This document shows positions 4,777 to 57,842 of a stretch of DNA of 64,000 nucleotides, piece by piece (the stretch's first letter is position 1; each line of letters opens with the position of its first letter). The stretch lies in the sequence record PQ433349.1. The stretch is one strand, 5' to 3'. Below the pieces are notes generated by a model that saw only the letters and a program-made list of their open reading frames with translations, ran no database searches and had not been told where the DNA came from. The stretch comes from Escherichia phage vB_Ec-G1. A program made the position numbers and the translations under genes.

Positions 4777-5838
4777 ATGGCGAAGCCAATATATTATCCT
4801 GACTGGGCTACACAAACTGTAACGCTCCCAGGAACTTTAAACACAAACAAAATTAGACCTAAAGAAACCATCCGCACAGTTGGTATGGATTATGGTCAAA
4901 TCATGACTTGCGAAGAAATGAACTGGATTCTTAATAATATCGGTTTATGGATTCGTTATTTGGTGGATGACTTTATTCCAACTTTACCTAATACTTACTT
5001 GCCTTTAGTTGGAACTAAGATTACAATGGCAGGCGATGCTACTGGTGAGGCTACTTGGAACGGTGATAAAGAAGTTATTTTATCTATCCAAGTTCAAGAT
5101 AACAGTCATAATCACTTATCGGCAAACATTACAGATGCTACTAGTTCAATAGTAACACCAAATGTGTTGGTAAAACGTGATGCAGGTGGTGCTATTTATG
5201 GTGGTGATGTTTATGTTAATGGTACTTCCACAACAGATCCTGCAACCCTGTTTTTCAAGAACTTTGCAGGACAGACTAATGGTGAGATTTCTGCCGAATA
5301 CCAAAGTGGAGGTCAGCTTTATATTTATCGTAGAAATCCTAGCACAGGTAGTGTAGCCGCAGGTGTTCGTTTATATGATGCAGGTTATGTTCTAATAGAC
5401 AATCCAAGATCAAACAATGGACAAGACACTTCTAACGGAAATGCTTTAGTTCGTTTAGATTATCTGAACTCTCGTTTGACTTCCCTTCAGAACACATTGC
5501 AGACGAATATTAACACTGTTCAAAACAACTTGAATAATGTTAACAACAACCTCTCTTCTCGTATAAACAATGTAGAAAGTAATCATCAAAGTCAGATTAC
5601 AAATAACTACAACTATGCTAACGGAACCTTTGTAAGAGATATTCGTTATACTAGCCAAGGTGTGTATTATCCACCAGGGAACGAGGTTTCTTGGACTTAT
5701 ATCTGTTCTTCTGGTTATGTTCTTTCTGGTATTATCGTACAGGAAACAGGACGTAGCTCTGCGGATAACATCGGTGGGGTTTACTTCAAACGCCTCCAGC
5801 GCAACGTTAACGGAAACTGGTACGATATTGGAGGCTAA
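4777..5838 (+). CDS. tail fiber protein
   Basis: 353 aa; Asn-rich coiled stretch NNLNNVNNNLSSRINNVESN; followed by Tfa-like chaperone gene. Confidence 0.55.
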   Translation: MAKPIYYPDWATQTVTLPGTLNTNKIRPKETIRTVGMDYGQIMTCEEMNWILNNIGLWIRYLVDDFIPTLPNTYLPLVGTKITMAGDATGEATWNGDKEVILSIQVQDNSHNHLSANITDATSSIVTPNVLVKRDAGGAIYGGDVYVNGTSTTDPATLFFKNFAGQTNGEISAEYQSGGQLYIYRRNPSTGSVAAGVRLYDAGYVLIDNPRSNNGQDTSNGNALVRLDYLNSRLTSLQNTLQTNINTVQNNLNNVNNNLSSRINNVESNHQSQITNNYNYANGTFVRDIRYTSQGVYYPPGNEVSWTYICSSGYVLSGIIVQETGRSSADNIGGVYFKRLQRNVNGNWYDIGG

Positions 5839-6384
5839 ATGATATTTACAAACTTTAAAAAATATATTCCTGAAGACCCTGAAATAAAAGAATTGGTAGA
5901 AGCAGAGAACATTCTTTTTCTTCGTTGCGATCAAGGTTACGATTGGTATGATTTACGTAGCACAGAATTCAATAACGATAAAATGAAAGTCGTTTTTGAC
6001 GATCAAAATCGTATTGTGTTTTGGAACACTGATCCTACATTACTTTGCCCTGAAGATCTTTCTATAGCACAAGTGGACTTTAATATAGACACTTTTGAGG
6101 ATATTAGAAACAAGGTTCTGGATTTAGAAACTTTGACTCTTAAGGATAAAGAGTATTCCCGTGAAGAGTTGATGACACAAGCTAGTGCAAAAATTCGCTC
6201 TTTACAAGAAACAGCGGTAGCACTTATAACACCTTTACAGTATGCTAAAGATTTAGAAATGGCTACTGAAGACGAATTAGCTTATCTTAAAAATCTTCAA
6301 GTTTATGTAGTTAAACTAAATCGTGTTCCGCTTCAAAAAGACTATCCTTACGCTATAGATTGGCCTACATTACCGACAGAATAA
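5839..6384 (+). CDS. tail fiber assembly chaperone (Tfa-like)
   Basis: C-terminal LQVYVVKLNRVPLQKDYPYAIDWPTLP resembles conserved Tfa C-terminus. Confidence 0.65.
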   Translation: MIFTNFKKYIPEDPEIKELVEAENILFLRCDQGYDWYDLRSTEFNNDKMKVVFDDQNRIVFWNTDPTLLCPEDLSIAQVDFNIDTFEDIRNKVLDLETLTLKDKEYSREELMTQASAKIRSLQETAVALITPLQYAKDLEMATEDELAYLKNLQVYVVKLNRVPLQKDYPYAIDWPTLPTE

Positions 6385-6393
6385 GGGATCACT

Positions 6394-6729
6394 ATGGAAT
6401 TTCAAGAAGCATGGGGACTTGCAAAGGATGCAATAATCCCTTTAATCGGAGTCATCTGGTTCTTTTTCAAACAAAAAATGGATAAATTCGGCTCTGATCT
6501 TGAGGAAATGGAGGAGAAAAGTCGAGAGCTAGAGAAGAAGTTGGTCTTTGTTGAATCAACTTATGCAACTAAAGCCGAACTTACCCAGATGCTAAATCAA
6601 ATTAACTCTACATTAATGGCAAATAATAACACCCTTGAGCAAAAAATTGAAAAGATTATGGACCTCAAGAATGCGACTATCCAAATGATGCTAGATGACA
6701 TAGTTAAACGTACACAGAATAAGGGGTAA
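6394..6729 (+). CDS. membrane-anchored coiled-coil protein
   Basis: N-terminal TM helix (IIPLIGVIWFFF) then coiled coil. Confidence 0.45.
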   Translation: MEFQEAWGLAKDAIIPLIGVIWFFFKQKMDKFGSDLEEMEEKSRELEKKLVFVESTYATKAELTQMLNQINSTLMANNNTLEQKIEKIMDLKNATIQMMLDDIVKRTQNKG

Positions 6730-6732
6730 TTA

Positions 6733-9700
6733 ATGGCAACATTCCCAACATATCCAGCAACGTCTCTCGAACAGGGCGTAGACCTGGTTATTTTCTCATC
6801 TAACCAACTCCATGATGTTATTAATGGAAGTGCTACAGAGAGTATTGAAACAGAATCAGGGTTGATACCAACCCTGAGAAAAGCCCTTGTTGACAACTTT
6901 TTCTTTAAAAGCCCATTGGATTGGGCGCAAGGCACAAACGAAACAGTTTTTAACCAACTTCGTTATTTCCAGAATGGAGTATTGAGCGGTTATTACTATG
7001 CCCCTAACGCTACATTGGTTAACCCAATCCCTATGCAAGGGACTCCAGTAGGAGATAACAACTGGGTATTGTGGGGACTGAAAACAGAACAATTAGCAAC
7101 AGAAGTCACCCCGTGGGTATACTCTGGTGCAACGGGTTATGAAACAGTAATTAGTCCTCCTTACATCTTTGATAGTGCTATTGTTACGATCAATGGTGTT
7201 ATTCAGGTTCTGGGGGAAGCTTTCCGTATAGAAGATAGTAAGATCATCCTATCTGAACCTTTGGGACACGATCCTGCAACAGGACTGCCAAACAAGCTTT
7301 TTGCTTACATTGGTAAAATCGTAGCTTCCGCAGATACAGATCCTAACCTAGAGAACCGTCTTGTCAGTTTAGAAACAAAAACGGAAGAACTAACAGAAAG
7401 CATGGATAAAGTCCCTCTGCAAACTATTGCTCGTAAATATGGTTTGTTAGATGATGAGGTGGCTTACGCAACAGCAGGTCAATCGTTAACAGGGATTAAA
7501 GCTCTGTATGATCCAGTAGCACAGTCTTCCTACACATTACCTCCTAACATCACAGGAACTTTAACATCCTTGTCTGTTTCTGGAGTAATGACTTATTCTG
7601 GGGGGTCTGTAGATCTTTCTGCACTAGCTGTTGAACGTGGACAGTTTGTTCATTTGCCTACAAGCTTTGGTAATAACGTAACTCTGACAGCTAAAAATCA
7701 GACGATTGGACGTGGTGCTGGTCGTTATCGTTGGGCTGGAAGTTTACCAAAAAGTATTTTGGCCTCCGATACATTGGAGACAAGTGGTGGATTAGGTCCA
7801 AATGCATGGGTTCTGACCAATACAGAAGGACTGTTAACCCCTCGTGGTGGAACATACAACGATTTATTCGATGTTGTCTACTTGTCAGAATTTGCTAACA
7901 ACACAACAACATATACCACACCAGAAGCAGCTTTCCAAGCGGCACTGTTAGCAGCAAAAGCTTCGAAAAGCAAGATTCTCGATGCTTACGGTTGCGATAT
8001 GACTTTCACGACAAGCTCTTTTGATATTCAAGGTATCACTTTGCGTGGGGGTGTGTTCCGTGGTCAACGCGACTATCGTGTGCAAAATGCTACAGTAGAA
8101 GGCACAACTTTCCGTAACTCTCGTGTTATGTATTGGGGTGGTGCTGTGCGCATGTTCGATTGTTTGTGGGACGGTGCTCCTCGCGCAGGTCAAGTTGGTA
8201 GCTTGGTATTCCAAGGCAACCCAATATCAGGTACTTTTGAAATTGATAATTGTACTTTTAAAAACGGGTTGTATGGCATCCTTCAACAAGGAACAGGGGA
8301 ACCAGTAACACGTGGTGTCTTCCGTAACCTTACCTTCATGGACATGCAAGGTGATGCAATAGAACTGAACGTCATCAATAAACATTATGACGATGGTTGT
8401 GTGATTGAGAATATTTACCTGTCTAATATCGATGGGACTAACGCTCCTATTCCTCTGTCCAACTGGGGTATCGGTATCGGTGTAGCTGGTAAAGGACCAT
8501 ATGGTTACGGAATCCCTGATGATCAATATTGCAAGAATATTACAATTCGTAACGTTTTTGCAAAACGTTGTCGTCAGATTGTCCACGTAGAAGTTGGTCG
8601 TAATATCTCTATCGAAAACATTCATGGCGATCCAGACCAGACCGTATCTGTTGGGACAGGTTTGGCAACTGGCGCAGTTGTAATGTACGGAAGTAAAGAT
8701 TTTACGATTGACGGTGTTTACGGAGAGCCTAAAACAGACGGTAGCACACTTGCAAGTAATATCCGTATGATTTATTTGGAGTGGGGAACTAACGCAGTTC
8801 TGGACGGAGAGGGTAATCCGGTAGTTCCGGCACAGGGTAGACCTTCAAACCCATGCTTTAACTATTCTGTTCGTAATATTCATACCAAAACTGGACGTGT
8901 TTTTGCGGGAGTTTCCGCTGGGCCAGGTTATGAAAACAGAGTTAGCTTTGAAAATATTCGTTGCGCTGCATTGCAGTTGTTCGGTATAGCTTCTTGGCTT
9001 TCAATGTCTAACATCACCTGTAATATCTTCGATTGTGTTGGTCAACCTGAATCTGGTCCAGGGACATTTTATGATGGATTCTTCCGTAGAGAAAAATCTG
9101 TTCTTGAAATGGTTAACGTAAACTGTTACCCAGATGGCAAGACGATGGTTACTGGTCGTCCACAGTGGAGCCGTTGCCGTTACTCGGATATTCATCGTGT
9201 CAACTGTAATGTTGAAGCTAATATGTATACCAATATCGCAGGTGGTATTGGAGCTATTGTAGGGACAACGGGCAAAGTTTATTACTTAGAGCCTAATCCT
9301 AGTCGAAACATTGATGGAATGCATTTCCCAACAGGGAAAGAGTTTGACAAAGGGGATATGATAGTCAAGGCGGATAATACGTTCTTCCTTGTAACAACAA
9401 GTGGGGCATATATTCCAGATATCCCAGCTTTCGGTATTCGAGCTACACAGGCAGGAGATACCTTCCTGACACAGAACTTGACTCCTAACGGGACAGCAAC
9501 AAATGCTTCTTGGTTGTATCATTACCCTCTGTCAGCAGGGACACGTATCCGTATTCCTGGTGCTGGCGTAGGTGGAGCAGATTTGGACACAGTTATTACT
9601 CGTGCACCTTATCAAGATAATGATACGTGGACTAACCCAGTTAAAATAGACATTGCAGATCCAATTGTAACGCCTACAAGTGCTGGAGTTAGAATTAAAA

Positions 9701-9786
9701 CCATACCTAATGATTCCAGTAATGTTTCTGTAGGTAATACTGCGGTTATTCGCCCAACGCCAGTAGTAGATGTGCCAACAACCTAA
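6733..9786 (+). CDS. tailspike protein with beta-helix domain
   Basis: 1017 aa; conserved N-terminal anchor region then repetitive beta-strand-rich region typical of polysaccharide-degrading spikes. Confidence 0.7.
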   Translation: MATFPTYPATSLEQGVDLVIFSSNQLHDVINGSATESIETESGLIPTLRKALVDNFFFKSPLDWAQGTNETVFNQLRYFQNGVLSGYYYAPNATLVNPIPMQGTPVGDNNWVLWGLKTEQLATEVTPWVYSGATGYETVISPPYIFDSAIVTINGVIQVLGEAFRIEDSKIILSEPLGHDPATGLPNKLFAYIGKIVASADTDPNLENRLVSLETKTEELTESMDKVPLQTIARKYGLLDDEVAYATAGQSLTGIKALYDPVAQSSYTLPPNITGTLTSLSVSGVMTYSGGSVDLSALAVERGQFVHLPTSFGNNVTLTAKNQTIGRGAGRYRWAGSLPKSILASDTLETSGGLGPNAWVLTNTEGLLTPRGGTYNDLFDVVYLSEFANNTTTYTTPEAAFQAALLAAKASKSKILDAYGCDMTFTTSSFDIQGITLRGGVFRGQRDYRVQNATVEGTTFRNSRVMYWGGAVRMFDCLWDGAPRAGQVGSLVFQGNPISGTFEIDNCTFKNGLYGILQQGTGEPVTRGVFRNLTFMDMQGDAIELNVINKHYDDGCVIENIYLSNIDGTNAPIPLSNWGIGIGVAGKGPYGYGIPDDQYCKNITIRNVFAKRCRQIVHVEVGRNISIENIHGDPDQTVSVGTGLATGAVVMYGSKDFTIDGVYGEPKTDGSTLASNIRMIYLEWGTNAVLDGEGNPVVPAQGRPSNPCFNYSVRNIHTKTGRVFAGVSAGPGYENRVSFENIRCAALQLFGIASWLSMSNITCNIFDCVGQPESGPGTFYDGFFRREKSVLEMVNVNCYPDGKTMVTGRPQWSRCRYSDIHRVNCNVEANMYTNIAGGIGAIVGTTGKVYYLEPNPSRNIDGMHFPTGKEFDKGDMIVKADNTFFLVTTSGAYIPDIPAFGIRATQAGDTFLTQNLTPNGTATNASWLYHYPLSAGTRIRIPGAGVGGADLDTVITRAPYQDNDTWTNPVKIDIADPIVTPTSAGVRIKTIPNDSSNVSVGNTAVIRPTPVVDVPTT

Positions 9787-9792
9787 TGGAAT

Positions 9793-9818
9793 AGAGGGGG
9801 AATTCCCCCTCTTCTTCC
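9793..9818 (+). terminator. intrinsic terminator
   Basis: agaggggg aatt ccccctct hairpin then T-rich run. Confidence 0.5.
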
Positions 9819-9848
9819 AATAGAATGGTCTAATGATAGGAGAGATAA

Positions 9849-11873
9849 ATGAATTTAACAAGACCTAATAGTGCGATAGCCGATCTGGTAGAAGCTACTT
9901 ATCGAAAACGTCGCAGCTTTGAGGCAGGTTTTACATTACGTAATTCCCGTGAAGTTTTGCTGTTAGCAGCAGAAGGGAATTATTACCAATGGAAAGGAAC
10001 TTTTCCTAAAGTAGTTCCAGCAAACTCTACGCCAGCCACCACAGGTGGTATTTCTTCCCTTGCATGGCAAAGTGTTGGGACCGCTGATGATATAGCAATT
10101 ATCAATGCCAAGTTTACGGCAATGCAGCAACAGATTGATGATCTGTCGGAAACAATACCTGAAGCTGGTAAATCGGCTTATCAGATCGCACTTGATAATG
10201 GTTTTGTTGGAACAGAAGCACAATGGCTTGCTTCTTTGAAAGGGGATACTGGTGCTCAACTTAATATTAAAGGATCATTAGCAAGCACTAGTGAACTACC
10301 ATCCACAGGTAACGTTGCAGGGGATGGTTATATCGTAGGTGATGTAATCTACGCTTGGGATGGTTCTGTTTGGAAACTTATTTCTTCTCTTGGGCCAGAA
10401 GGTAAATCAGCTTACGAGGTATGGTTGGCAGATGGTAATACAGGATCTGTTTATGATTTTCTTACCTCTATAAAAGGTGATAAAGGCGATGTTGGTCCTA
10501 CAGGGCCACAGGGAGCACCTGGTGTTAACGCCAACGGTTTTGATTATCGTGGGGATTTGCCTTCTACAAGTAACTTACCACAACCTAACTCTGAAAACGT
10601 AAGCCAAGCTTATTCTATCAATGGTAATCTTTATGTCTCTAATGGGACAGCTTGGGTCAACATGGGTAATATTGTTGGTCCTCAAGGTCCACAAGGTGAG
10701 GCAGGTAAAGACGGTCTAGATGGAACAGATGGGGATGAAGGGAAATCTGCATATCAAAGTTGGCTGGATGCTGGTAATGAAGGGACAGAAGTAGATTTTA
10801 TTGCCTCACTTAAAGGTCCAAAAGGAGACAAGGGTGATCAAGGAGAGCGAGGTCCACAAGGTGAACTAGGTCCACAAGGACCAGTGGGTGCAACAGGATC
10901 AGGCTTAGAGATTATCGGGGTTCTGAACAGTGAAGCTGAACTTCCTCCTACTGGAGAAGTAGGTGATGCATATAAAATTAATAATGATTTGTATGTTTGG
11001 GTTCAAGATGCTACGGAATGGATGAATGTTGGCAGTCTTGGAGGAACATCAATTACAGCTAAAGGTCATGTTCCGAACAGTGAAGCTCTCCCTGTTTATA
11101 ATAACTATGGTGATGCCTACTTAACTGAAGATACTAGTAATCTTTACATCTATACCTACGATCAAGACACCAATTCCGCATCTTTTGTTGACATGGGAAG
11201 TATTAAAGGCGACAAAGGTGAAAAAGGGGATAAAGGAGATAAGGGTGATCCTGGAACAAACGGAACCAACGGTACTAATGGGACCAACGGTAAGGACGGC
11301 GCACAGTGGTTTGTAGCAACAACTAATCCAGTCGCAGGTGATGGTGTTATCAATGATTACGCTTTCAATACTACCACTGGGGCAGTGTTTAAGAAAACAG
11401 ATTCTTCTACGTGGACACTTATAGGAACTCTTCCTAGTATACCAGAAGCCCCTCAAGATGGCTTGACGTATGGTCGTTCTGATGGAAACTGGATCGAAAT
11501 ATCAGGATCAGATCCTACGGAAGCTATAACACCAACTAGAGTTACAGCAGGTTTCATGGAACTTGAAACAACTACTGCCAACTCTGGAGCATCTTGGACT
11601 CCTTCTGGAACTTCCAATATGTATGTTGTTACAGTAACTGATGCTCTGACAGTTGGAGCATGGCCTGGTGTCACTGGCTCTACAAAACCTAAAGCGTTTT
11701 CAGCAATGATTTATTTGATTCAAGATACAACGGGACACACGGTTACACTAGATGCGTCTTATGGAGCACTAAATGATACAGAAATAGCAACTGCTGCTAA
11801 CGCAGTAACAATTTTGCAATTAACGTATCCTGGTGTGGGTGATATCGTGGACATGGTTGTTGTAACACGATAA
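9849..11873 (+). CDS. collagen-like tail fiber protein
   Basis: Several Gly-X-Y runs (GPQGPQGEAGKDGLDG, GDKGDQGERGPQGELGPQGPVG, GDKGEKGDKGDKGDPGTNGTNGTNGTNG). Confidence 0.75.
   Translation: MNLTRPNSAIADLVEATYRKRRSFEAGFTLRNSREVLLLAAEGNYYQWKGTFPKVVPANSTPATTGGISSLAWQSVGTADDIAIINAKFTAMQQQIDDLSETIPEAGKSAYQIALDNGFVGTEAQWLASLKGDTGAQLNIKGSLASTSELPSTGNVAGDGYIVGDVIYAWDGSVWKLISSLGPEGKSAYEVWLADGNTGSVYDFLTSIKGDKGDVGPTGPQGAPGVNANGFDYRGDLPSTSNLPQPNSENVSQAYSINGNLYVSNGTAWVNMGNIVGPQGPQGEAGKDGLDGTDGDEGKSAYQSWLDAGNEGTEVDFIASLKGPKGDKGDQGERGPQGELGPQGPVGATGSGLEIIGVLNSEAELPPTGEVGDAYKINNDLYVWVQDATEWMNVGSLGGTSITAKGHVPNSEALPVYNNYGDAYLTEDTSNLYIYTYDQDTNSASFVDMGSIKGDKGEKGDKGDKGDPGTNGTNGTNGTNGKDGAQWFVATTNPVAGDGVINDYAFNTTTGAVFKKTDSSTWTLIGTLPSIPEAPQDGLTYGRSDGNWIEISGSDPTEAITPTRVTAGFMELETTTANSGASWTPSGTSNMYVVTVTDALTVGAWPGVTGSTKPKAFSAMIYLIQDTTGHTVTLDASYGALNDTEIATAANAVTILQLTYPGVGDIVDMVVVTR
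11209..11297 (+). repeat. tandem 9-bp repeats encoding GDK/GTN collagen triplets
   Basis: gataaagga-type and ggaaccaac-type units repeated 3-4 times within the fiber gene. Confidence 0.6.
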
Positions 11874-34883: not shown

Positions 34884-35234
34884 TCATTTTAAAAATACCT
34901 CATCATCAGTTTCATTATCCCAGAAGAACAAATCCCAACCATTCGGATCATTCCATTTGGCTGCTGGAGAAGTCCATATTTGTTCGATATCAATATTCAA
35001 AACTTCACCGTTTCGTTTTGAAACAGCTTTAGTTAATTCCCAACGAGATACAGGCTCTACTTCCCCTGAACCACTCCCACAACAAGCTACCACGTTAGGA
35101 GGCAAATTAATTGGATCTTTGGTCACGATCATAACGCTTACCCCAGGGTAAACTTTTGAAAGATAATCTAAAACGTAATCCACATCACCAGATAAATCCC
35201 AAACAAGTTCTTGAATTTCATCAAAATTATTCAT
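34884..35234 (-). CDS. hypothetical protein
   Basis: Track ORF 116 aa. Confidence 0.45.
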   Translation of the reverse strand: MNNFDEIQELVWDLSGDVDYVLDYLSKVYPGVSVMIVTKDPINLPPNVVACCGSGSGEVEPVSRWELTKAVSKRNGEVLNIDIEQIWTSPAAKWNDPNGWDLFFWDNETDDEVFLK

Positions 35235-35276: not shown

Positions 35277-36251
35277 TTAAACAGCAGCTTCTTCTTTTTC
35301 AGGGAAGATAAAGCTTGCAATAACACCAAGAGCTAATGTGCCTAGAACAATCATCAGACTTACGTTAGGGGAAATATCATGCGGGAGGAATGACCACTTG
35401 GCATGAAGTGTTTCACCGAACGGGTGATACATAAGTTTAGCACCGACAAATACCAGAACCACAGCAACAGCTTTCTCTAAGTGAACCAGATATTTCACAG
35501 CCACACTTAACACAAAGAAAAGTGCACGTAAACCAAGAACAGCCATCAGCATTGCAGAATAAACTAGCAGAGGTTCTTGTGTCACACCGATCACAGCCGG
35601 AACTGAATCAAAAGAGAAGACAATATCTGTAAGCTCAATAACAAACACACAAAGAAGAGCAGGAGTTGCATATTTAATACCATTCTTAATGGTGATGAAC
35701 TTTTCACCATCCAGTGCATTGTGCACAGGCAGAACTTTACCTACTAAACGAACAGCCCAATGCTTAGAGTAATCAATATCCTCTTCTTCGTCACCACCTT
35801 TGATGATAGCCACGGCAGACCAAGCTACAATCAAACCGAACAACACTTGGACCGACCAATGAAGGTTAAACAAAGCGGTCCCTGCTGCAACAAAAATACC
35901 TCGGAAGACAATGGCTCCTGCAATCCCCCAAAGTAAAATCTTATGTTGGAGATGTGTGCTCTTAATTCCAAAGCTTGCAAAAATTGCCATGAACACCATC
36001 AGGTTATCTACAGAAAGACTCTTTTCCAACACATAGCCACTTAGGAAAAGCGCGGCAAACTCTTTACCATGTTCTACCCAAATGAATGCGTAATATCCTA
36101 AAGCTAAAGCAATCCAAAAAACAGACCAAAGCAAAGCAGATTTAATTCCAATTTCTTTATTCTCTTTATGACCAAAGAAATCAATACCAATAGACAATGC
36201 TAAAATACCAACTAAAACAACTACATCAATAATGGGGAAACCAAGTTGCAT
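35277..36251 (-). CDS. terC: TerC-family integral membrane protein
   Basis: Multiple TM helices; signature EKSLSVDN and ELTDIVFSFDSVPAV. Confidence 0.85.
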   Translation of the reverse strand: MQLGFPIIDVVVLVGILALSIGIDFFGHKENKEIGIKSALLWSVFWIALALGYYAFIWVEHGKEFAALFLSGYVLEKSLSVDNLMVFMAIFASFGIKSTHLQHKILLWGIAGAIVFRGIFVAAGTALFNLHWSVQVLFGLIVAWSAVAIIKGGDEEEDIDYSKHWAVRLVGKVLPVHNALDGEKFITIKNGIKYATPALLCVFVIELTDIVFSFDSVPAVIGVTQEPLLVYSAMLMAVLGLRALFFVLSVAVKYLVHLEKAVAVVLVFVGAKLMYHPFGETLHAKWSFLPHDISPNVSLMIVLGTLALGVIASFIFPEKEEAAV

Positions 36252-54224: not shown

Positions 54225-55226
54225 TTGTTAGATATGCCAGTAAAGAAGAGTATTGAAACATATATGGAAGAATGTAAGCCGATAGCTGAGGCTAAAGGGA
54301 TTACCATTCTCGGCACGTATGGAGAAGATAAAGGTGTGCATACGAAGATGATCAATCGTTGTGAACATGGTCATGAATGGAACACTACAACCTTTAATAA
54401 ATTTAAGTCTGGTCGTGGTTGCCCTGTTTGTAGGTATGAGAGAGCAGGACAAGCTAAAACTATTCCAGATGATCAGCACATACAAGATTTTATGAATACA
54501 GGCAAGTTTAAACCTGGGACTATCTTCACTAATACAGGAAAACGAGCTAAAGGAGGGCGCAATATTTTATGGTGTGTAGAGTGTCCTGTTTGTAGTGTTG
54601 ATGAATATGTTCAAGCGGGTGTCTGCAATGGTAAATTTTACTCTACAGGGAGTAGCCTTAAAAAAGGGCAAACCCCTTGCCGTTGTGCAACTAACTATCA
54701 CCACACAGAAGAACAGATCACCTACAGAACAAAGAAGGAAGTAGAGAGTAAAGGATACATTTGGATAGGATGGATCGGGAAACCTTTTGCACATGGTAAG
54801 TTTAAATATGGATGTAAGGAGCACGGAGAGCAGATAGGACGTGCAAGGGATTTATTACACCAGGGTAGTGGTTGTCCTGGTTGCGCTGGCAAGAATCAAC
54901 AACAGGCATACATTAACAACGTCTATGATGAACAAGGTGTTCTTTGTGCATTGAAGTTTGGCATTGCCAATAATAGCGATCAGCGTATTAAGATCCAGAA
55001 CTACAACAATGTGTTTACGATGAAACAAACCCAAGTGTGGCGCTTCCCTACTGTGAAGCAATGCAAAGATGCAGAGAAGCGTTGTAAGCGTGTCCTTCAC
55101 ACGGAAGCAGTGAGCAAATATTCTATGCCAGATGGCTACACAGAGACAGTGGAGTTATCTTGCATGGCATCAATACAAAATATTTATAAACTTTATGGTG
55201 GAACATTACAGGAGGAAACATGTTAG
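54225..55226 (+). CDS. zinc-ribbon-repeat protein with GIY-YIG/T5orf172-like C-terminal domain (tentative)
   Basis: Three repeats of C.HG..W ... G.GCP.C; C-terminal YINNVYDEQGVLCALKFGIANNSDQRIK; sits right after a terminator. Confidence 0.45.
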   Translation: MLDMPVKKSIETYMEECKPIAEAKGITILGTYGEDKGVHTKMINRCEHGHEWNTTTFNKFKSGRGCPVCRYERAGQAKTIPDDQHIQDFMNTGKFKPGTIFTNTGKRAKGGRNILWCVECPVCSVDEYVQAGVCNGKFYSTGSSLKKGQTPCRCATNYHHTEEQITYRTKKEVESKGYIWIGWIGKPFAHGKFKYGCKEHGEQIGRARDLLHQGSGCPGCAGKNQQQAYINNVYDEQGVLCALKFGIANNSDQRIKIQNYNNVFTMKQTQVWRFPTVKQCKDAEKRCKRVLHTEAVSKYSMPDGYTETVELSCMASIQNIYKLYGGTLQEETC

Positions 55227-55598: not shown

Positions 55599-55778
55599 AT
55601 GGCACGTTTAGCAGATCATGAAATCTTTAAACCTATTCTGAACCACTATGATGAACTTAAAGCAGTGTTGGATTGTTATAGAGAGGATGAAGAACGTTTG
55701 GAAGTCAATCTTAAGATAGTTCTGATGAAAGCTTTTCAAGACGGGCAAGCTAAAGTTTTAGAAGGCATGAAAAAATGA
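55599..55778 (+). CDS. hypothetical small protein
   Basis: GGAG RBS before internal ATG of track ORF 55563..55778. Confidence 0.4.
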   Translation: MARLADHEIFKPILNHYDELKAVLDCYREDEERLEVNLKIVLMKAFQDGQAKVLEGMKK

Positions 55779-56317
55779 GAATAACTGATGAATATGTATT
55801 CTTCTTTTCACATAAAGATGTGTTTAGTAATTGGTATATTGCACCCTTTACAGAAACTGAACCAGGTTACAATGAGACTTTCTGTTGTGTTGAGCAATAT
55901 ATGATGTGGCGTAAGGCTTTGCTGTTCAAGGATCATGCGATTGCAGCAGCTATCCTTGATCACTCAACTATACGTGACAACGAGAGGAAACAAGCATACT
56001 ACAAACGTATGGGTCGAGCGGTATCTGGTTTTAATAATGATATGTGGGAAGAGAACCGTGAGCGTATTGTTATGCGAGGCTTATGCTTGAAATATGTACA
56101 GAATCCAGATTTGTATGCAGACTTACACCTTTACCAATACAAAACGTTTGTTGAAGCAAGCCCCTACGATAAGGTTTACGGAATTGGAATGGGGATGTAT
56201 GAACCAGGGGTGCTAAACCCTGCTACCTGGAAAGGGCAGAATCTTTTAGGCAAATATCATAATAAACTGATCGAAATACTTTTCCCAGACAAAATACCGC
56301 AAAGACGATATTTGTGA
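55775..56317 (+). CDS. NADAR-domain protein (YbiA-like ADP-ribose processing)
   Basis: FSNWY, CVEQYMMWRKALLF, RMGRAVSGFNNDMWEENRERIVMRGLCLKYVQNPDL, ASPYDKVYGIGMG align with E. coli YbiA as recalled. Confidence 0.75.
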   Translation: MRITDEYVFFFSHKDVFSNWYIAPFTETEPGYNETFCCVEQYMMWRKALLFKDHAIAAAILDHSTIRDNERKQAYYKRMGRAVSGFNNDMWEENRERIVMRGLCLKYVQNPDLYADLHLYQYKTFVEASPYDKVYGIGMGMYEPGVLNPATWKGQNLLGKYHNKLIEILFPDKIPQRRYL

Positions 56318-56372
56318 TATTTTAACTTTTTTCATTTTTAGAACAAAGGTGTCACTTTGTAGCACAGAAATA

Positions 56373-56408
56373 AGGCTCCTACAGCACCGTAGAGAGCCTG
56401 TTATTTTG
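56373..56408 (+). terminator. intrinsic terminator
   Basis: ggctcctac agcacc gtagagagcc hairpin followed by tgttattttg. Confidence 0.6.
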
Positions 56409-56561
56409 TCCTATACAAACCCTTATCTTTTTCAGTTTGCATCACTAGGATTCGATCTAAGTGGGTTCCTGAAGGTCTGCCAATAAGATTAAAGGTTATC
56501 TCAAATTCCCACTACCTATTATCTCAAAAATCCCTCAAATTATTTAAACTTTTTAAGAATT

Positions 56562-56740
56562 TACAAAAGTGAAAGTTGAAAACCAAAATTTAAAGTTTAG
56601 GAAAATTATCTTAAAATGTTAGATACAAAACAAAACTCAAAAATCAAGGAAAATTTTAAAAATTTTGCGCGCCCACAGTATTTAAAGTTTTTTTGCTTTT
56701 ACAAAAATGAAAGTACAAAAGCAAAATTTAAAGTTTACAA
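56562..56740. repeat. two about 38-bp direct repeats in an AT-rich non-coding region
   Basis: acaaaagtgaaagttgaaaaccaaaatttaaagtttag (56562-56600) vs acaaaaatgaaagtacaaaagcaaaatttaaagtttac (56701-56740), about 33/38 identical. Confidence 0.6.
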
Positions 56741-56789
56741 AAATTTATGCAGATGGGAATGAGAAGAGTTCTCATATGGAAATGCAAAT

Positions 56790-56860
56790 GATAATGATTC
56801 GCATTTAGGTTTATAAATGAGATTGATTCTTATTCAATAAGGTAAATGATAATCATTCTC
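56790..56860. promoter_or_regulatory. pair of Fur-box-like sites
   Basis: gataatgattcgcatt and aatgataatcattctc versus E. coli Fur consensus GATAATGATAATCATTATC. Confidence 0.45.
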
Positions 56861-57097
56861 ATTTAAAGAATGACGCGCAGGGGCGGTGTTTGTCTCGCGC
56901 TCCCGTGTCCCCTCGCCATGTAATAAGAATAACAGATCCAGCCAGGAAAGCAAGCGATTATTTTATCTTTACATTTCTTTACAAATATATAGCGCCCAGC
57001 CTACCGGCGATCAACCTTCCAACCAGTGCCCCCTGGTATGTTAGCCCCGCCTTTACGCCGTGGGGTGGCGCTTCCTCTTCTGTATGTAAAACAGTAT

Positions 57098-57135
57098 AAG
57101 CCCGATCCCTGGGCTTGTCAAGATTATTTTTTGTT
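57098..57135. terminator. stem-loop with T-run
   Basis: aagcccgatccctgggctt hairpin then ttattttttgtttt on plus strand; also just past stop of minus gene. Confidence 0.4.
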
Positions 57136-57390
57136 TTCTTGCCAGGATAGGACACCTAACCAAAAATATATATCGCCCCGCGCCCCTGGTGGTATCTTGC
57201 TTTCCCCGCCGCCACTGCAAGCCCATAGATAACCATTTGCGAACGTATCAAAATGATCTATCTCTTCCACCTTATGATCGCCCAGGTTGAGAACGGTTTC
57301 AACCTTTAAGCCCGTTGCGCTTGCTACCTGGTGCACCGTGCCGCCTTGCCAGCCCAATGAGTGCATAAGGTGTAATGTAGTATTTGTCAT
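57124..57390 (-). CDS. hypothetical protein in GC-rich island
   Basis: Track ORF 88 aa; codon usage unlike rest of window. Confidence 0.45.
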   Translation of the reverse strand: MTNTTLHLMHSLGWQGGTVHQVASATGLKVETVLNLGDHKVEEIDHFDTFANGYLWACSGGGESKIPPGARGDIYFWLGVLSWQENKK

Positions 57391-57499
57391 GGTATCGCCC
57401 TTTCTTTGATGTGCGCCCTGGTTGGCGCGGTAGAAAGATGATAGCCCTTTCTTTTATATATAGCAAGCAAAAAGAAAATAAAAAAGATTGAAAAAGTGA

Positions 57500-57556
57500 T
57501 TGACGTTCGCCAGGTGGCGGCATAATATTTACCACGTAGGGCGGCAATGGTGCCGC
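57500..57556 (+). promoter_or_regulatory. promoter plus leader hairpin cassette A
   Basis: TTGACG-17-TAATAT, then ccacgtagggcggcaatggtgccgc hairpin. Confidence 0.6.
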
Positions 57557-57577
57557 TCATTATTTGGAGTTAAAATC

Positions 57578-57775
57578 ATGGCAACATTGCACATTGTGGC
57601 GAAAGCTGGACAAATAAACGTGGTAGTAAACGGTTTTACTGAGTTCAGTCATCCCCAGGATGATCATGAAACGGTTTTATCTTTCATTGATTCACTGTTA
57701 GAAATGGGAGTAATTACAGAAGACCAGCACGCTACAAAATGCAAGCGCGTTAATCAAATTGCAGGGATAGAATAA
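57578..57775 (+). CDS. small protein (65 aa)
   Basis: ATG after cassette A and GGAG RBS; internal Met of track ORF. Confidence 0.5.
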   Translation: MATLHIVAKAGQINVVVNGFTEFSHPQDDHETVLSFIDSLLEMGVITEDQHATKCKRVNQIAGIE

Positions 57776-57781
57776 AAAGTA

Positions 57782-57842
57782 TTGACAACAAACAACAACC
57801 TGATAAGATGTATCACATAGGGCGGCGGAATGGTCCAGCCGC
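57782..57842 (+). promoter_or_regulatory. promoter plus leader hairpin cassette B
   Basis: TTGACA-16-TAAGAT (TG upstream), then tcacatagggcggcggaatggtccagccgc. Confidence 0.6.

Follow-up and report, generated by a model that had tools for sequence, protein, structure and literature searches.

Why would a virulent phage carry, in DNA with almost no genes, what appear to be operators for the iron sensor of its host? The question is raised by a stretch of 64,000 nucleotides of Escherichia phage vB_Ec-G1 (PQ433349.1; hereafter the window), in which a near gene-free gap of 1.26 kb (56318-57577), with the genes on either side converging on it, holds an array of palindromes resembling the binding sites of the Escherichia coli protein Fur. 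The phage is a member of Phapecoctavirus (Stephanstirmvirinae; phAPEC8-like), whose relatives are virulent E. coli myophages of ~150 kb, and 1.3 kb around the array is 97-99% identical to the Phapecoctavirus genomes vB_EcoM_UP17, ESCO13, and phAPEC8. We propose, with a probability of roughly 0.4, that the array, when coated by iron-loaded Fur (Fe-Fur), would act as a conditional barrier, or as an operator, where a terminal block of early genes has its inner border.

Four Fur-type boxes with a 29-nt period

A sequence-only reading of the window had pointed to two Fur-box-like strings about 40 nt apart. Both are present, gataatgattcgcatt at 56790-56805 and aatgataatcattctc at 56845-56860, with 39 nt between them, and the 7-1-7 core of the second, TGATAATCATTCTCA, has the single mismatch claimed for it. 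Their identification as Fur-type boxes has strong in silico support, but their number was too low: a repeat finder resolves four units with an exact period of 29 nt (starts at 56758, 56787, 56816, and 56845), of which the two strings represent units 2 and 4. The 19-mer GTAAATGATAATCATTCTC (56842-56860) agrees with the classical 19-mer GATAATGATAATCATTATC at 16 of 19 positions and is the only match to it with three or fewer mismatches in the 64 kb, where 0.02 would be expected from shuffled sequences.

For quantitative scoring, a Fur matrix was derived by a de novo search for a palindromic 19-mer (300 random starts; consensus AATGATAATCATTATCATT) in 12 Fur-regulated promoter regions within 105.5 kb of E. 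coli K-12 DNA, namely those of fepA-fes, fepD-entS, fepB-entC, fhuA, tonB, cirA, fecA, fecI, fur, exbB, feoA, and ryhB. All 12 matches of at least 14 bits in the 105.5 kb fall in Fur-regulated promoters and none outside, and they include two sites outside the training set, oppA and a second one at fepB; when the 143-kb genome of a relative is shuffled, 0.9 such matches are found per genome. Scoring with a position weight matrix had been suggested as a check on the strings, and with this matrix the array units take the first four places among all matches in the window (Table 1), the best match outside the array reaching 12.8 bits. Leave-one-out scores of the E. coli sites range from 6.2 to 21.8 bits, with ryhB the best training site, so that two of the phage boxes (24.6 and 22.2 bits) outscore every host site tested. 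Box 4, AATGATAATCATTCTCATT, differs by one base from the ryhB operator AATAATAATCATTCTCATT. Boxes 2 and 4 are each overlapped by a partner site at a 6-bp offset, the spacing reported for paired Fur dimers on opposite faces of the DNA and likewise found between overlapping sites in footprinted E. coli Fur clusters (PMC2189734). By sequence, the four units are candidate Fur operators of the highest class, not to be told apart from the strongest Fur operators.

The arms of the units are complementary at only 7-8 of 9 positions and the Fur scores nevertheless remain high, which argues for selection on the boxes and not on hairpin potential. The same is suggested by related phages, in which the boxes number from one to five, and in one of which, tuntematon, their order is inverted, with the boxes still kept. 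In tuntematon (1819-1866), units 3 and 4 form one block that is reversed in comparison with the window and is flanked by 37-nt inverted-repeat arms made by the boxes themselves (I1: 56786-56822 / 56828-56864). A Zur box was considered and rejected: a comparison by hand with the E. coli Zur consensus, made without a Zur matrix, shows agreement in the outer AAATG...CATTT arms alone (~13/23, versus 16/19 and 24.6 bits for Fur).

The same palindrome in other phages and in bacteria

The boxes, together with the start of the GC-rich island that follows them, were found in Justusliebigvirus, rV5-like Vequintavirus, PVP-SE1 (Seunavirus), and CR8 (Certrevirus), and in phages of Klebsiella, Proteus, and Erwinia. 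Five genera of large Enterobacteria myophages have kept the array, and a sensitive search recovered the box region alone in T5-like siphophages as well. Alignment of 15 distinct sequences gives a common layout, in which genus-specific AT-rich or iteron-like repeats are followed by one to five Fur boxes, mostly spaced at 29 bp, and then by the GC-rich element. In 14 of the 15 distinct sequences, 186-199 nt separate the last box from the conserved hairpin that closes this element, and PVP-SE1 has one box only at the array site. An earlier suggestion that a host iron-regulated promoter had been captured found no support: blastn detected no similarity to the region in 5,426 complete E. coli genomes, which argues against a recently captured host promoter, and the element is, to all appearances, an old and conserved phage module.

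Beyond these phages, at least 120 contigs of bacterial genomes, belonging to many taxa, contain the exact phage palindrome AATGAGAATCATTCTCATT. In bacteria it lies upstream of iron-uptake genes; its neighbors in the sampled bacterial loci are genes for three TonB-dependent receptors, a P19-type Fe2+ transport protein, an ABC-transporter ATPase, and a PepSY_TM protein, and the palindrome itself is by every indication a bacterial Fur operator. At least 120 metagenomic viral contigs (IMG/VR; loci L018-L137) have it too, as against none for either of two scrambled palindromes with the same base composition. Of the boxes in these contigs, 63% lie outside open reading frames (ORFs), versus 19% of random positions. 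Many of the loci have more strong boxes nearby, some in regular arrays of three to four with a 26-37-bp spacing, such as L081, which has three perfect copies at a 30-bp spacing (1810/1840/1870), and L129, which has four boxes at a 26-bp spacing (7038-7116). The number of viral contigs set against the empty controls, and the often regular arrays, suggest that the phenomenon may be general. No downstream gene family recurs among the 120 viral loci. The contigs have very different GC contents, and by a rough hand count about a quarter of their boxes stand within 300 bp of a contig end.

Phage T5 (NC_005859.1) carries a matrix cluster at 9552, 9587, 9610, 9656 (24.6 bits), and 9691, spanning 9552-9715, in which the DRE/palindrome repeats of T5 are top-scoring Fur-type boxes (20.1, 24.6, and 21.3 bits). 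The cluster lies inside the annotated 'injection stop signal' (9140-10149), 33 bp to the left of the annotated major nick (9748/9749), and adjoins the first-step-transfer shear point calculated at ~9618, in repeat DRE2 (bioRxiv 10.1101/866236). In T5-like phages the boxes stand between convergent operons, behind an annotated terminator. A two-box module of 55 nt (window 56780-56834) is 84-85% identical to T5-like phages by blastn, the box variants of the window also occur in HASG4 and T5, and the unusual GAGATTGATTCT variant is common to both sides; the identity of the module and this common variant argue for common descent or transfer. The perfect palindrome of T5-like phages, AAATGAGAATCATTCTCATTT, has matches with five or fewer mismatches in the window at the four array units only, the phage units differing from it at 1-5 positions and the E. 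coli sites at 6 or more. A further T5 site (231-249; 17.0 bits) is found near the left end, inside dmp.

The injection stop region of T5 (Repeat Region 3, with DRE/DRC repeats and palindromes) resembles the gap in holding a top-scoring Fur-matrix cluster, and both are large, repeat-rich stretches with few or no genes on which transcription units converge, at the inner border of an early block that is terminal in T5 and may be so here. T5 differs in its paired DnaA boxes (IRD'/IRC'), its DRD repeats, its 10-kb terminal repeat, and its A1/A2 proteins, none of which were found here (for A1/A2, in the 64 kb of the window and among the ranked matches listed). Papers on T5 from 2020-2026 describe the injection-stop repeats as being of unexplained function (including bioRxiv 10.1101/866236), and our literature search found Fur boxes in virulent coliphages or T5 nowhere mentioned.

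Two phage-encoded readers of the motif were considered and rejected. One is a Fur protein of the phages' own, of which these phages have no homologue. The other is a shared phage DNA-binding protein: in tblastn searches with T5 A1 and A2, the matches listed were all from T5-like or distant non-enterobacterial phages, with none from Phapecoctavirus or rV5-like phages, and no protein match linked the ORFs at 53-64 kb of the window to the terminal repeat of T5. A motif common to unrelated phage families and to bacterial iron promoters is most simply read by a host protein.

Possible roles of the array at the early-block border

In the complete genome of the relative DIJ07P1, boxes of at least 14 bits occur at two places only, namely this array and a second gene-free region (1.9 kb; boxes at 35201, 35957, and 36130-36154), on the far side of the early-gene block. 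The two-cluster layout is repeated in PVP-SE1, which belongs to a different subfamily, and in UP17, where the second cluster (12613) begins 11.8 kb rightward of the array and would fall ~4.3 kb past the right end of the window. The left end of phage BME3 is a homologue of the second region in the opposite orientation, and for BME3 a 342-bp direct terminal repeat was obtained with PhageTerm (PMC12210895); this repeat carries Fur boxes at positions 53 and 248. The ends of the window phage are placed solely by homology to BME3, the ETEC-TG record being circular and the R7 repeat ambiguous. The array, with the phage module of which it is part, evidently sits at the inner border of the block that holds the small early genes, and by inference only that block would be a terminal genome segment bracketed by Fur boxes.

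Because its 19-bp units are 29 bp apart, Fur bound to the array would span about 105-120 bp without gaps. In an iron-replete host, Fe-Fur would coat the array and form a protein barrier or operator on the DNA, which would stop RNA polymerase from two leftward promoters, P1(-) and P2(-), from entering the AT-rich repeat tract to the left, and would also occlude a weak rightward promoter that overlaps box 4. In an iron-poor cell the barrier would be lifted, making the crossing of the border dependent on host iron status. It may also halt other factors that track or spread along DNA, such as H-NS filaments from the AT-rich tract. We favor the barrier because of the continuous coverage expected, the conserved promoters reading into the array, and the clusters at both borders of the block. 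Its geometry is conserved: P1(-) and P2(-) are both directed into the Fur array, and in 13 aligned phages their hexamers are kept while the spacers vary (P1(-) matching the consensus at 9-11 of 12 positions in all 13, P2(-) at 9 of 12 in 11 of them), and box 4 is fixed in position relative to the GC-rich element.

Several points weigh against a barrier. The sites, their strength, phasing, and conservation, the promoters, and the border position are in silico observations, from which the occupancy by Fur and its effect as a barrier are wholly inferred. Fur boxes are A/T-rich and promoter-like in any case, so the overlaps with promoters may be by-products; P2(-) matches at only 7 of 12 positions in the lineage of the window, and the rightward promoter is weak as well. 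To the left of the array there are only non-coding repeats, with nothing obvious to protect. Stopping transcription would be simpler with ordinary terminators, and in T5-like phages, where the boxes lie behind a terminator between convergent operons, a transcription barrier is not obviously needed. Finally, a barrier alone leaves the above-host strength of the sites unexplained.

That strength would be explained by a Fur sponge, in which replicating phage genomes soak up host Fur and so derepress the iron-uptake regulon, providing iron for phage iron enzymes with no phage transcript being regulated. An E. coli cell contains about 5,000-10,000 Fur monomers. Roughly 8-10 sites per genome, in hundreds of copies, would be comparable to this pool, so that the Fur-titrating decoy envisaged from the letters alone is at least quantitatively plausible; the sites equal or exceed the best host operators, they are multiplied in arrays of variable number and order and again in the second cluster, and boxes that fit the consensus exactly are frequent across diverse viral contigs, some of them in arrays of three to four. 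A pure sponge would, however, need none of the fixed positions relative to promoters, GC-rich element, and both early-block borders, and PVP-SE1 makes do with a single box at the array site. T5 degrades host DNA early and retains its cluster all the same; derepression of host genes cannot be the purpose there. We consider a sponge unlikely. The palindromes might instead have nothing to do with Fur, being bound by a phage protein, as are the iterons of a lambda-type origin, or acting as RNA hairpins. Four dyad-symmetric direct repeats beside an AT-rich tract do recall the layout of the lambda origin, and the phage units are closer to one another than to individual E. coli sites when compared with the T5-like palindrome. 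Yet the same 19-mer is the operator of Fur regulons in many bacteria, it occurs in unrelated phage families with no detectable common protein near it, the departures from dyad symmetry preserve the Fur score and not the pairing, and the 6-bp-offset partner sites are a hallmark of Fur. A host Fur operator common to unrelated phages and bacteria argues against a phage-specific initiator, and we regard a coincidental likeness to Fur as improbable.

If Fur does bind, the array could simply repress a promoter, with box 4 as the operator of a rightward non-coding RNA of ~215 nt ending at the hairpin at 57038-57071. Box 4 spans the -35 hexamer and spacer of a decent rightward element in rV5, PVP-SE1, and CR8 (TTGAAT-18-CAGAAT), at the same distance in all genera, and the ryhB promoter has a near-identical box. 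The 12-pair stem of the hairpin contains three invariant G.U pairs that exist in the plus sense only, and one-sided substitutions retain wobble pairing in that sense only, a hint of a plus-sense RNA. In the window, however, the -35 is a poor GTAAAT (the -10-like AAGAAT lies at 56866-56871), in another lineage the -10 is a poor CTGAAT, and the promoter scan, with its threshold of 9/12, does not pick up the element. Against Rfam (E <= 5), positions 56200-57700 gave two chance-level matches only; RNAalifold on 12 sequences gave -19.6 kcal/mol with a covariation term of -0.5 kcal/mol and no compensatory pairs; and the ~215-nt stretch downstream of the array folds no better than shuffles on either strand (z = +1.26 plus, +0.39 minus). 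The putative terminator has no U-run, and boxes 1-3 and the second cluster would be left without a role. Of the iron-controlled transcript or small RNA starting near 56870 that the sequence-only reading had proposed, a rightward transcript is possible but weak and a structured small RNA is not supported; plain repression of a promoter seems quite unlikely to account for the array. A role at the level of DNA at the genome end, as a cis signal for staged entry like the T5 injection stop or as a host-factor site for an origin or packaging, is similarly doubtful. It has in its favor the position of the T5 cluster, close to the major nick and shear point, the shared two-box module, the Fur boxes in the BME3 terminal repeat homologous to the second cluster region, and the surroundings of the array, which has genus-specific iteron-like repeats and the genome's most AT-rich stretch next to it. 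Two-step entry, on the other hand, is a feature of T5 and is not known for these myophages, A1/A2 homologues are absent among the matches listed, and a cytoplasmic repressor has no obvious means of halting DNA entry. DnaA boxes (TTWTNCACA) are absent from window positions 56000-57800, GC skew tracks gene orientation with no origin-like switch at the locus, and the termini are known by homology only, the distance of the second cluster varying from 7.5 to about 12 kb. The far-reaching version of this idea strikes us as a long shot: Fur-box arrays would be a portable cis signal delimiting the first-expressed terminal DNA, host Fur would be the missing factor in the T5 injection stop (or in a later event), and phAPEC8-, phi92-, rV5-, and PVP-SE1-like myophages would have a T5-like, iron-sensing staged or gated entry or expression.

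Known systems help to place the barrier that we favor. The units have the same 19-bp palindrome as E. coli Fur operators (ryhB, fhuA, fecI, fepA-fes, and aerobactin-type 'iron boxes'), with GAGAAT/GATAAT hexamer variants. They differ from these operators in lying in a virulent phage with no iron gene downstream, in their regular 29-bp spacing, and in being not centered on a strong promoter but downstream of two promoters that point in. The stx1 promoter of Shiga-toxin phages has a Fur box, and cyanophages carry PhoB and NtcA sites; there, as may be the case here, a host sensor is borrowed via its operator. Those sites are single operators at a defined cargo gene, whereas here arrays stand at the borders of gene blocks and no regulated coding gene was identified. 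In 2010 Nandal and colleagues reportedly found that tandem Fur sites upstream of ftnA reverse H-NS silencing, the activating role being experimental. There too several tandem Fur boxes lie beside AT-rich DNA, and, as is proposed for the phage boxes, they work through an array of bound protein and do not simply block a promoter. An anti-H-NS boundary would be one version of the barrier by analogy with ftnA, but ftnA is a host gene with demonstrated activation, whereas for the phage array a link to H-NS is pure conjecture.

Fur operators as such are well known; what appears to be new is that virulent phages have such sites, by sequence, arrayed along non-coding borders. If Fur binds them, virulent coliphages of two unrelated families would have wired the host iron sensor into the borders of their early blocks, a lytic phage could read or manipulate host iron status, and Fur would be a candidate for the protein acting at the T5 injection-stop repeats. 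Phapecoctaviruses are used in phage-therapy work, where iron limitation of the host is normal.

Flanking elements and neighboring genes

The coordinates of the features in and around the gap are collected in Table 1.

Table 1. Features of the gap and its left neighbor in the window (positions in the 64,000-nt stretch)
Feature	Position	Strand	Details
NADAR-domain protein gene	55775-56317	+	PF08719, E = 3e-35; ends directly left of gap
AT-rich repeat tract	56400-56750		Left of array; 24.5-30% GC; 72-nt direct repeats at 56536-56607 and 56674-56745
Putative Fur box 1, AATGAGAAGAGTTCTCATA	56758-56776		14.4 bits, fourth in window; weakest unit, opens the 29-nt array
6-bp-offset partner site	56781-56799		13.0 bits; overlaps box 2
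Putative Fur box 2, AATGATAATGATTCGCATT	56787-56805		22.2 bits; variant also in T5-like phages
Putative Fur box 3, AATGAGATTGATTCTTATT	56816-56834		19.3 bits; unusual GAGATTGATTCT variant, same as T5 site 9691
6-bp-offset partner site	56839-56857		12.1 bits; overlaps box 4
Weak rightward promoter-like element	56842-56871	+	GTAAAT-18-AAGAAT; overlapped by box 4; read from sequences and alignment
Putative Fur box 4, AATGATAATCATTCTCATT	56845-56863		24.6 bits, above all E. coli training sites
GC-rich non-coding element	56866-57125		Conserved across genera; includes GGTGTTTGTCTC and CTTTACA-N3-CTTTACA
P2(-), leftward sigma-70-like promoter	56926-56953	-	TTGCTT-16-TATTCT here; TTGCAA-17-TATATT in most relatives
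Hairpin ATGTTAGCCCCGC / GTGGGGTGGCGC with pyrimidine tract	57038-57082	+	Conserved; terminator-like in scan
P1(-), strong leftward sigma-70 promoter	57093-57121	-	TTGACA-17-TATACT, 11/12
ORF88 (88 aa)	57124-57390	-	Annotated in ESCO13 and ASO2A; phrog_19316; read towards array

The flanks had been described correctly from the letters, with an AT-rich repeat region on the left and a GC-rich island on the right (48-51% GC); of the hairpin with a T-run reported at the end of a roughly 250-nt stretch, the hairpin is present, and in place of a clean T-run it is followed by the pyrimidine tract CTTCCTCTTCT. The AT-rich repeats and the array together (56400-56860) make up the lowest-GC 500-bp segment in the whole genome of a relative (27.8% versus 38.9%). 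Other genera have their own palindromic, GATC-rich iteron-like repeats (TCTCGATCGGTTTTTCAAAATCGAGATCG) in place of the AT-rich tract.

Coding potential of the GC-rich island was considered and rejected. Close relatives differ there by 1-nt indels and genera by indels of 1, 4, 6, and 12 nt, from which it follows that the element is non-coding, and a 113-aa ORF annotated in phAPEC8 is split in the window. All genera have the direct repeat CTTTACA-TTT-CTTTACA(AA) (56967-56985 in the window), which lies a short way upstream of the -35 hexamer of P2(-); we take it to resemble tandem half-sites of an OmpR-type response regulator.

A mimic or sponge of RyhB was likewise rejected as a product of the region: BLAST gave only the shared Fur box and a 10-12-nt identity, TTGTCTCGCGAT, and duplex energies of the plus strand with RyhB were no better than those of shuffles, in a calculation that is unreliable at these lengths. 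The sequence TTGTCTCGCG(AT) (56889-56898; ~1545-1556 in PVP-SE1) is identical to that spanning the transcription start of E. coli ryhB, over 12 nt in PVP-SE1 and 10 nt in the window, and may be a chance match (E about 0.01-0.1).

ORF88 is the sole conserved small gene within the gap, and a Pfam search with its product gave no match. For the gene that precedes the NADAR gene (54225-55226), the PHROG matches are to endonucleases and HNH endonucleases. Right of the gap, from 57578, there follows a series of small rightward ORFs that are typical early genes with sigma-70 promoters, their products having no assigned function. A hairpin, GGGCGGCAATGGTGCCGCTC (57539-57558), separates the early promoter from the gene that opens the series and is possibly a conserved element of the 5' leader; similar sequences were found at three more places in the early block of DIJ07P1, and the phAPEC8 annotation calls such sites PHIRE 'promoters'. 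Several GenBank records named 'Campylobacter phage' (MG065650.1, MG065645.1, and others) are 89-96% identical to the region of the window and to rV5-like phages, and are probably mislabelled or contaminated.

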